Shown in pieces: positions 1,985 to 39,402 of a stretch of DNA of 39,402 bases. The stretch covers positions 1 to 39,402 of the forward strand of contig CAZJBH010000002.1 in the NCBI GenBank assembly GCA_964544485.1, in the 5' to 3' direction. Position 1 is the first letter of the stretch. Every line of letters begins with the position of its first letter. Source of the stretch: an uncultured Candidatus Saccharibacteria bacterium (GTDB lineage: Bacteria > Patescibacteriota > Minisyncoccia > Portnoybacterales > UBA2143). The notes below the pieces were generated by a model. That model was not told the DNA's origin. It was given only the letters and a program-made list of their open reading frames with translations, and did not search any database. The translations under genes and the position numbers were made by a program.

Positions 1985-2479
1985 ATGGATAAACAAAAAG
2001 AAATTACTTACCTTGAAGAAGAATCAGAAGATTCAGCTTCTAAAACAAAATTAATTAAGCTTAAAAAGAAATTAAAGCAATGTCAGCAAGAAAAAGAGGA
2101 GTATTTATCCCAGATGCAAAGAGCCCGGGCAGATTTGATTAATTATCAGAAAAGACAGGAGAAATTAACTGAAGAATTAAAGAAATTTGGCCAAGCTAAA
2201 TTAGTTTTTGATCTTTTGCCTGTTTTGGATAGTTTAAAACAAGGAGCTAAACAAAATCAGGAAATCAAATGTTTAAAAGATCAATTTGAATCAATTTTAA
2301 AACATTATCAATTAAATGAAATCAAAACTAAACAAGAAAAGTTTGATCCTAATTTTCATGAAGCGATTGATCAAGTTGAATCAGAGCAAGAATCTGGTAT
2401 GATTATAGAGGAAGTTCAAAAAGGATATTTATTAGGCGATAAAGTTTTAAGGCCAGCCAGGGTAAGAGTGGCGAAATAA
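1985..2479 (+). CDS. grpE: nucleotide exchange factor GrpE
   Basis: 164 aa with a coiled-coil N-terminus. The C-terminal part has LLPVLDSL, FDPNFHEAI and VLRPARVRVAK, which are typical GrpE blocks. It sits upstream of dnaK. Confidence 0.9.
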   Translation: MDKQKEITYLEEESEDSASKTKLIKLKKKLKQCQQEKEEYLSQMQRARADLINYQKRQEKLTEELKKFGQAKLVFDLLPVLDSLKQGAKQNQEIKCLKDQFESILKHYQLNEIKTKQEKFDPNFHEAIDQVESEQESGMIIEEVQKGYLLGDKVLRPARVRVAK

Positions 2480-5010: not shown

Positions 5011-5226
5011 AGGACGTTCTTTAGAAGGCGTGTCCTTCTGAAAGAAGGACGGCGCCTTATAAGGAATGTCCTCTAAAGAGAGACTATCTATCGAGGACAC
5101 TCTTTAAAAGATACGTCCTTTTAACAAAGAACATATCTTTTAAGGAGCGTCCTCTAATTTACCTGCAATGACAATCCTTTTTTAACTTTCTACAAAGAAC
5201 ATACCTTTTAAGGAATGTCCTCTAAA
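5011..5226. repeat. intergenic repeat array: three AGGAC-N16/17-GTCCT inverted repeats plus 34-bp and 18-bp direct repeats
   Basis: Inverted repeats lie at 5011-5036, 5046-5072 and 5094-5119. A 34-bp direct repeat lies at 5124-5157 and 5192-5225 with 3 mismatches. An identical 18-mer TAAGGAATGTCCTCTAAA lies at 5060-5077 and 5209-5226. Confidence 0.8.
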
Positions 5227-5240
5227 TCAACGAAGAATAG

Positions 5241-5275
5241 AAAAAAGGCGGCCTTTATTAGGTCGCCTTTTGGTT
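5241..5275. terminator. bidirectional rho-independent terminator between dnaK(+) and the 5280-6083(-) gene
   Basis: The stem AAGGCGGCC (5245-5253) / GGTCGCCTT (5261-5269) is 9 bp with one G-T pair and a 7-nt loop. It is flanked by an A-run on the left and a T-rich run on the right. Confidence 0.65.
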
Positions 5276-5279
5276 TTGT

Positions 5280-6151: not shown

Positions 6152-6231
6152 ATCTTATCTTAAAATAGATTTTTTGTCAAGGGCTTGATTAATTTTAGCC
6201 TCTTGACAAAAATTCAATTATTTGCTAGATT
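6152..6231. promoter_or_regulatory. divergent promoter pair embedded in a ~15-bp inverted repeat (candidate operator)
   Basis: The arms are TTTTTGTCAAGGGCT (6171-6185) and AGCCTCTTGACAAAAA (6197-6212). The plus-strand promoter is TTGACA 6203-6208, N17, TAGATT 6226-6231. The minus-strand promoter is TTGACA (complement of 6175-6180), N17, TAAGAT (complement of 6152-6157). Confidence 0.45.
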
Positions 6232-26246: not shown

Positions 26247-26275
26247 TTGACAGCCTAAAAGCTGTATTTTAAGAT
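26247..26275 (+). promoter_or_regulatory. promoter for the xer-nuclease pair (TTGACA-N17-TAAGAT)
   Basis: TTGACA at 26247-26252, a 17-nt spacer, then TAAGAT at 26270-26275, about 50 nt upstream of the ATG at 26326. Confidence 0.45.
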
Positions 26276-38472: not shown

Positions 38473-38979
38473 TTATTTTTTAAACTTAACTAAATTTTTC
38501 TTTTTTCCGTTTAGAATTTTATCAACCATTTCAATCTCTTTTCTAATTCCTTCAATCAAATTATATTTTTTGAGTTGATTAATTTTAACCCAAGCATGGT
38601 TAATCGTGTCTGAATCGTATTTAATTTTACCTGATTTATATGGACAATACCAGCTTAAAACAATACAAGGAATTCCGTCTGATCGGATAAAAACCATATC
38701 TAATAGATATTCTATTTTACCAACTTTTAAATTAACTTCTTCTAAAATTTCTCGATGCAATGATTTTTCTATAGCAAAATACCAATGATCTTGAGTTGTT
38801 TTAGGAGTGTGGATATAGTCATCAGTCTCTAATCCTCCGCCTGGCACAGTCCATAAGCCAGGAAAAGCTTTTTTCTCAAAGCTGCGTTGAGTAATTAAAT
38901 ATTTATACTCATCTTTTTCTTTTTTATAAATAATTGCCGTAGAAGCAATCCGATGCAATTCTTTATGTTTTAATTTCAT
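38473..38979 (-). CDS. NUDIX hydrolase
   Basis: The Nudix box is split by an insert: PGGGLETDD...REILEEVNL. 168 aa. Confidence 0.7.
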   Translation of the reverse strand: MKLKHKELHRIASTAIIYKKEKDEYKYLITQRSFEKKAFPGLWTVPGGGLETDDYIHTPKTTQDHWYFAIEKSLHREILEEVNLKVGKIEYLLDMVFIRSDGIPCIVLSWYCPYKSGKIKYDSDTINHAWVKINQLKKYNLIEGIRKEIEMVDKILNGKKKNLVKFKK

Positions 38980-38986
38980 AAATTTA

Positions 38987-39015
38987 TTGACAAGAATTAA
39001 ATATTTTGTTAGTTT
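38987..39015 (+). promoter_or_regulatory. candidate promoter for the downstream structured RNA (TTGACA-N17-TAGTTT)
   Basis: TTGACA at 38987-38992, a 17-nt spacer, then a weak -10 TAGTTT at 39010-39015. Confidence 0.35.
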
Positions 39016-39021
39016 TTAATT

Positions 39022-39332
39022 ACATTGTTCTTTGCCGCTAGGGATCTTTGAAGAATTAAGGGAGACTGTTTAATTGTGCAGATAAGTACCGAGTGGGGAA
39101 AAGTTCGAGCTTAAACAGAACGAATTTGAGAAGGTGTCTTTGTTGGTTCACGAAAAAGCTAATAGGAGTCGCACACTCCTTGTGCAATAGTTTTTCTGTA
39201 GAGCTAACTTACTTGTCCATCCAAGGAAATATCCTTCTCGTTGATCGGAATTCGGTACCTTAATTTCTCTAGCGGCTTCGCTAAACCAAGACCGAAAAGC
39301 ATAATGCTGAGTAGGTCTTTTTTATTTTTTCA
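39022..39332 (+). ncRNA. unclassified structured RNA (~245-nt core closed by an 11-bp terminal helix, plus intrinsic terminator)
   Basis: There is no ORF. GC is about 42% in line 39061-39120 against about 25-30% background. Long-range helix GCCGCTAGGGA (39034-39044) / TCTCTAGCGGC (39266-39276). Nested helix GTACCGA (39086-39092) / TCGGTAC (39252-39258). Hairpins at 39054-39075 and 39164-39180. Terminator AAGACC (39288-39293) / GGTCTT (39314-39319) followed by a T-run. The strand is assigned from the promoter and T-run. Confidence 0.5.
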
Positions 39333-39376
39333 GATATTTTTAGAATGAATTTATAAGAACTTTTATTTTTAAAAAT

Positions 39377-39402
39377 TGGCGGAGAGGGAGGGATTCGAAC
39401 CC
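39377..39402 (-). tRNA. 3' fragment of a tRNA (T-arm, acceptor, G73, encoded CCA); probably tRNA-Ser
   Basis: The reverse complement reads GGGTTCGAATCCCTC-CCTCTCC-G-CCA, i.e. T-loop TTCGAAT, acceptor 3' strand CCTCTCC, discriminator G. The anticodon lies outside the window, so the identity is a guess. Confidence 0.6.

Follow-up and report, generated by a model that had tools for sequence, protein, structure and literature searches.

A candidate stand-alone, lineage-specific structured RNA gene between tRNA-Ser(GGA) and the NUDIX-dnaG-rpoD array of a Patescibacteria contig

The P4 helix of RNase P RNA is a long-range pseudoknot, its CR-I and CR-V strands enclosing P5-P18 and its 5′ strand carrying a bulged U. 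Stable RNAs are often trimmed to a closed core. CPR bacteria are known for RNase P RNAs that have diverged to below the Rfam cut-offs, and 10 of 35 circular CPR genomes required sub-threshold scores for their detection (Lui et al. 2021, PMC8172020). Beyond this report of diverged RNase P, our search of the literature found nothing on small RNAs of the Patescibacteria. Concerning stand-alone small RNA (sRNA) genes, which are set apart by a promoter of their own, an intrinsic terminator and the lack of an ORF, all three of these features were found in the stretch of DNA that is described here.

The window, by which we mean the whole stretch of DNA that was analysed with its 39,402 nucleotides, is a 39.4-kb contig of low G+C content (32%) from a member of the Patescibacteria/Paceibacteria. 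The homologues of its NUDIX hydrolase carry the names Portnoybacteria, Parcubacteria and Patescibacteria, the best of them being 79% identical. The NUDIX gene (38473-38979, minus strand) is the first gene of a NUDIX-dnaG-rpoD array, and the last 423 nt of the contig (38980-39402) lead from its start to the 3′ end of a tRNA-Ser(GGA) (39377-39402, minus strand) that is truncated at the contig end. These final 26 nt, all of this tRNA that the window holds, are identical to the 3′ end of the tRNA-Ser(GGA) of a related locus (L016). For the sequence between the two genes an initial annotation, all coordinates of which were found to be correct, had proposed a stand-alone structured RNA. A promoter, a terminator, a strand-specific fold and the lack of an ORF support that proposal for the plus strand, and on the basis of sequence and folding models we consider it probable, albeit by a modest measure, that the stretch is a gene of its own for a small non-coding RNA, restricted to one lineage (an orphan), divergent from NUDIX and convergent with the tRNA.

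In agreement with the initial annotation, the gap between the two genes (38980-39376) contains no ORF of more than 56 aa, and a protein search of a collection of 5.8 billion proteins revealed no relative of its longest ORF. A 12-codon ORF behind GGGAG (GUG at 39076) was rejected, as its spacing is weaker than the GGAGG-N7-ATG arrangement of the genome and as there is no downstream gene for it to regulate. A decayed MazG-like gene was likewise rejected as the origin of the stretch, since tblastn detected no remnant of it, even though a MazG-like gene fills the gap in several relatives. The sequence GAATTC-GGTACC, which might suggest the multiple-cloning site of a vector, is simply part of a helix (helix X, see below). 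The enrichment in G+C that had been pointed out (25 of 60 positions in 39061-39120) is borne out by the 243-nt core (39034-39276), the G+C content of which is 0.42 compared to 0.32 for the window and to 0.15 and 0.10 for the flanking spacers, the edges being sharp.

The sigma-70-type promoter (38987-39015, plus strand) is composed of a -35 box TTGACA and a -10 box TAGTTT at the annotated spacing of 17 nt, and the spacer additionally holds an extended -10 TG. The distance between the NUDIX ATG and the -35 box is 7 nt, and the transcription start is predicted to lie near 39022. Of the 6 positions of the -10 hexamer, only 3 agree with the consensus. With an expectation of 0.01 for the whole window, TTGACA-N14-TGn-TAnnnT was found at two places, the twin copy at 6203 preceding a gene with a GGAGG-ATG start. 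A pattern scan of the window for TTGACA-N16-18-TAnnnT gave five matches (1949-1976, 6152-6180 on the minus strand, 6203-6231, 26247-26275 and 38987-39015), all five of which are located in spacers (1.0 expected by chance). Near-consensus -35 boxes are apparently in use by this organism, its promoters being readable straight from the sequence.

In the intrinsic terminator (39288-39331, plus strand), AAGACC...GGUCUU encloses a second stem, AGCA/UGCU, and UUUUUUAUUUUUU follows. The terminator had been described as strong, and while the hairpin and the U-run are indeed present, its strength is better termed adequate, as the hairpin (39288-39319) is an interrupted stem of 6 bp and 4 bp with a folding energy of -11 kcal/mol and T6AT6 behind it. 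The terminator scan did not list this element because its loop is larger than 8 nt.

Comparison with shuffled sequences indicated that the core folds at z = -3.6 on the plus strand (1 of 300 shuffles being as good) and at z = -1.5 on the minus strand, the corresponding values for the whole gap being -3.1 and -0.65. Moreover, the G-U pairs present in three helices would become A-C mismatches on the other strand. In the plus-strand fold, the 5′ strand of P1, GCCGCUAGGGA (39034-39044), pairs with 39266-39276 over 11 bp including one G-U at a probability of approximately 1.0, which agrees with the annotated pairing of the two ends, and a P1-like helix (at least 11 bp with at least 6 G-C pairs) was obtained in just 2 of 300 shuffles. 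It is followed by a weakly structured 5′ insert of 41 nt (39045-39085, plus strand), which contains inverted repeats, shows pair probabilities of 0.2-0.5 and for which CUUUGA/UUAAGG, AAUUAA/UUAAUU and AAUUAAGG with 39258-39265 are rival pairings. The AATTAA/TTAATT hairpin that had been placed here is weaker than annotated, attaining a probability of 0.19 and competing with the pairing AATTAAGG/CCTTAATT (39054-39061/39258-39265).

The nested helix that had been drawn between 39086-39092 and 39252-39258 is present and longer than claimed: the 5′ strand of this helix X, GUACCGAGU (39086-39094, plus strand), pairs with 39250-39258 over 9 bp with one G-U at a mean probability of 0.95. Next to it, the purine junction GGGGAA and hairpin A occupy 39095-39127 (plus strand, probability 0.92), a stretch that had been likened to CR-I and CR-V, hairpin A being made up of AAGUUCG/CGAAUUU (7 bp) and the 13-nt loop AGCUUAAACAGAA. 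Domain B (39128-39239, plus strand; probabilities of 0.9-0.99) is closed by the 7-bp helix GAGAAGG/CCUUCUC and comprises a 67-nt interrupted hairpin (39142-39208, with AGGAGU-CGCAC-ACUCCU at its apex) as well as a small hairpin (39212-39225), and GCACA-CUCCU-UGUGC is another hairpin that may form in this domain. Finally, the 3′ strand (39250-39276, plus strand) is pairable over its full length, through the 3′ strand of helix X (39250-39258), CCUUAAUU (39258-39265) and the 3′ strand of P1 (39266-39276). The annotated GAGAAGG/CCTTCTC and AGGAGT/ACTCCT helices were recovered at probabilities of 0.96-0.99, while the proposed crossing pair ACAGAA/TTCTGT gained no support, its 3′ arm being located inside the long hairpin.

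Homologues of the element were sought in 80 loci around NUDIX orthologues of species-representative genomes and in 15 further loci obtained by exact-protein look-up, with flanks of up to 10 kb and a total of approximately 0.5 Mb. Neither nhmmer nor blastn (word size 7) detected a homologue in the 80 and then 95 related loci, and the sole match of a single-sequence covariance model of a 177-nt core against the same (approximately 95) loci was the window itself. JGI metagenome contigs were scanned with two transition-tolerant patterns, one for the P4-like hairpin and one for the junction together with the 3′ strand, without yielding a homologue, and two scans of viral contigs were equally negative, while BLAST against phages returned only matches of approximately 30-40 nt and BLAST against plasmids none. 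Employing k-mer look-ups in the SRA with the whole element and its two halves, the sequence was found in only one public run, the DNA metagenome X1, at a depth of approximately 5x, and in an independent Logan assembly of this run the element is contiguous with NUDIX. The contigs of runs X1-X3 contain no diverged copy of the element at 80% likeness. As no homologue was found, there is no covariation and no sign of selection on the fold, and the importance that the initial annotation had implied for the RNA is therefore unsupported. In run X2, a sister sample from the same study, a 474-bp contig is approximately 93% identical to the 5′ end of NUDIX (window 38900-38982) and diverges right behind the start codon, and it may thus belong to a close relative with another upstream region.

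The array NUDIX-dnaG-rpoD-Wzy-GT2-LCP-GT2-ctp-acyP-rplI is conserved in loci L085 and L093, in contrast to the upstream side of NUDIX, which is highly variable among the relatives. In L016 a complete tRNA-Ser(GGA) directly adjoins the NUDIX ATG, and other relatives carry MazG-like, DNA-alkylation-repair or DUF2207 genes between the tRNA and NUDIX. L085 (9837-10003) and L001 (2337-2503) share an arrangement in which, 21 nt behind an intact tRNA-Ser(GGA), there lies the 3′ half of another class II tRNA, complete with the variable arm, the T arm, the acceptor and the CCA, the latter overlapping the NUDIX start codon. This displaced half would appear to be a scar left when DNA was inserted or replaced at the end of the tRNA. 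Since the element is missing at the orthologous site of the relatives, it would appear to be a young, lineage-specific insertion and not a housekeeping RNA; judged by these sequence comparisons, the RNA unit was inserted in one lineage, at a variable site next to a tRNA.

Structured elements are also found at this site in two of the relatives. In locus L017 the region immediately upstream of NUDIX (2256-2470, minus strand of the locus) is occupied by a structured RNA gene in antisense orientation. Its promoter, TTGACC-17-TATTAT, lies 5-6 nt away from the NUDIX ATG, a terminator is present and the fold gives z = -3.7; its core of approximately 135 nt is closed by a helix of approximately 20 bp and has no Rfam match at gathering thresholds. 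In L019 a G+C-rich structured element of approximately 330 nt lies between a MazG-like gene and NUDIX (2075-2470, minus strand of the locus), with a TTGACA-17-TAAGAT promoter, a terminator and z = -2.9, and belongs to no Rfam family. These two RNAs share only a 3′ hairpin, CCCGUGGA...GAUGAAGCGGG (Smith-Waterman z = 4.95), and homology of the window RNA with those of L017 and L019 was rejected at Smith-Waterman z = 0.9 and 0.3, respectively. Elsewhere in the window, the strongest-folding spacer is located downstream of dnaK (5077-5279; z of approximately -8 on both strands) and holds GGAC...GTCC hairpin arrays together with 34-bp direct repeats.

Based on these findings, the following scheme may be proposed for a stand-alone RNA gene. 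A strong promoter of the housekeeping type, facing away from the adjacent NUDIX start codon, would direct initiation by RNA polymerase near 39022, and transcription would end at the hairpin and U-run near 39320-39331, yielding a primary transcript of approximately 300 nt that may be trimmed to the 243-nt core closed by P1. The predicted RNA would fold into a rod of P1 (11 bp) and helix X (9 bp), topped by a three-way junction from which a short hairpin and a long branched arm would emanate. The AT-rich spacer, the RNA, the terminator and a second AT-rich spacer would have been inserted as one unit between tRNA-Ser(GGA) and the NUDIX-dnaG-rpoD operon. With respect to function, a stable protein-binding or regulatory RNA that acts in trans would seem the most likely role. 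Prediction of sRNA targets among the 48 start regions of the window performed no better than a reversed-sequence control. Its placement would moreover allow an influence on the operon, as a side effect or as an alternative role: the RNA gene and the tRNA face each other, and any read-through from the tRNA promoter into dnaG-rpoD would have to pass the RNA gene, so that transcription of the latter and the two-way terminator hairpin may insulate dnaG-rpoD from such read-through or dampen it in an antisense manner.

Insertion could also have left DNA without any function. The stretch would then be either what a decayed mobile or integrative element, with the 11-bp P1 as its terminal inverted repeats, left behind at the 3′ end of the tRNA, or filler with a fortuitous fold. 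The position of the stretch, 100 nt from the tRNA 3′ end at a site that is occupied differently in nearly all relatives, would fit this explanation, as would the insertion scar at the same tRNA in L001/L085, the exact coincidence of the edges of the G+C island with the inverted repeat, and the orphan status of the element in every search; furthermore, non-functional inserted DNA can also yield a z near -3.5 and one good promoter. A mobile origin is, however, at odds with the searches for further copies, as the window contains only this one and neither the 0.5 Mb of related loci nor the metagenome and viral scans added another. It is also at odds with the lack of a target-site duplication or flanking direct repeat. 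Within the DNA searched, the same findings speak against a MITE or IS-derived repeat. A copy of the tRNA 3′ end was not found within the element, as no repeat links 39377-39402 with it. The promoter and terminator are intact and rightly placed, and the fold is strand-specific, unlike that of repeats which exist at the DNA level. We regard inert DNA as an unlikely but serious rival.

The same holds for the possibility that the stretch acts solely in cis, either as a module that is placed between tRNA-Ser and NUDIX-dnaG-rpoD and works by antisense or insulation, or through a minus-strand copy that would serve as a structured leader of the operon. As the tRNA 3′ end adjoins the NUDIX ATG in L016 and a tRNA 3′ fragment does so in L001/L085, the operon is probably co-transcribed with the tRNA in these relatives, and since the RNA gene is convergent with the tRNA, any read-through from the latter would be antisense to the RNA gene. 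In keeping with a function in cis, a scan of the minus strand of 38700-39402 detected nothing promoter-like for NUDIX, although a weak one is possible in the 54-nt AT-rich spacer, and the terminator hairpin faces the tRNA gene on the minus strand and is followed there too by 5 U in the next 8 nt. The antisense-oriented structured RNA genes upstream of NUDIX in L017 and L019, unrelated in sequence, point in the same direction, whereas in most relatives the site is occupied by protein genes and not by RNA genes. The minus-strand fold, no better than that of shuffled sequences, speaks against a structured leader.

A broader proposal, which we hold to be rather doubtful, is that the stretch represents the first member of an undescribed class of structured RNAs of approximately 245 nt in a poorly sampled lineage of the Paceibacteria, with the RNAs of L017 and L019 as functional analogues. 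Such an RNA might act as a stable ribonucleoprotein or as a regulatory RNA, encoded head to head with the NUDIX-dnaG-rpoD operon, and the RNAs of L017 and L019 would be its analogues as fast-evolving antisense or insulator controllers of a primase/sigma-factor operon that is fed by read-through from tRNA-Ser. If transcribed, the stretch would add one more unclassified structured RNA to the Patescibacteria, in which many are suspected despite the tiny genomes. Its main interest would reside in its placement between a tRNA and a primase/sigma-70 operon that are fused in some relatives, which suggests that genes at the core of replication and transcription could have their expression rewired by an inserted RNA gene. 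At present, the element is a single-genome orphan and opens no long-standing question.

The least probable reading, according to which the stretch is a drastically reduced or rearranged RNase P RNA of this organism, is very unlikely, the resemblance being at chance level because the motifs form a local hairpin, lack a counterpart of P5-P18 and occur frequently by chance. GGGGAAAAGUUCGAGC and ACAGAACGAAUUU do resemble CR-I and CR-V and are complementary to one another, and a second CR-I/P4-like pair is formed by AAGUACCGAGU and AUUCGGUACCUU, its 3′ arm directly behind CGGAA. However, the putative P4 strands (39101-39107 and 39121-39127) enclose nothing but a 13-nt loop and form a continuous helix of 7 bp with one G-U and without a bulged U, in line with the initial annotation, which had doubted these motifs on account of their wrong topology, a mere 4 nt separating them. 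There is no room for P5-P18 or for a specificity domain in canonical order. Matches to CR-I with up to 3 edits number approximately 55 in the window, and the combination of a CR-I-like match with ACAGAA within 40 nt was encountered 11 times in 1.08 Mb of Paceibacteria DNA (approximately once per 100 kb), mostly in genes. As an essential housekeeping RNA, RNase P would furthermore be expected to have recognisable relatives, and none were found in the DNA searched.

Covariance models lead to the same conclusion. At gathering thresholds, a tRNA-Lys is the only match to Rfam 15 in the window, and scans of 503 nt and 316 nt at E ≤ 10 gave no match to RNase P (RF00010/RF00011), 6S (RF00013 and related models), SRP or tmRNA, thereby substantiating the earlier statement that the stretch fits none of these classes. 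The scans listed only noise of 10-14 bits, namely tiny enterobacterial sRNAs, and the tRNA 3′ end; as noise of this level was listed for other families, RNase P must have scored below it.

Compared to type A RNase P RNA (RF00010), the stretch shares a P1-like helix at its ends, GGGGAAAAGUUCG as a likeness of CR-I, ACAGAAC as a likeness of J2/4-CR-V and a host group known for aberrant RNase P RNAs, and differs in having no long-range P4 pseudoknot, bulged U, P2/P3 arrangement or specificity domain. With 6S RNA (RF00013) it has in common the location of a gene resembling that of a stable RNA next to rpoD, the paired termini and a large asymmetric internal loop (41 versus 7 nt, between P1 and helix X), and it is distinguished by a three-way junction and a branched arm in place of a rod with a central bubble, as well as by the lack of a match to the 6S model. 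SRP RNA (RF00169/RF01854) gave no model match, and the predicted fold contains no GNRA-capped hairpin resembling helix 8. No tmRNA (RF00023) was found by ARAGORN, and the tmRNA model matched nothing but the 3′ end of the adjacent tRNA, which is on the opposite strand. The stretch thus lacks the hallmarks that define RNase P, 6S, SRP and tmRNA. With stand-alone or orphan sRNA genes, in contrast, it shares a promoter of the type used in the genome, the lack of a credible ORF, a hairpin followed by a U-run, an intergenic location and a restricted distribution, while from typical base-pairing sRNAs it differs in its length (approximately 300 nt, with a closed core of 243 nt), in its more compact fold and in that no seed or target could be pinpointed. 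Taken together, sequence and predicted structure would suggest that the stretch behaves like an ordinary stand-alone bacterial sRNA gene, albeit one that is larger and more compact than most.
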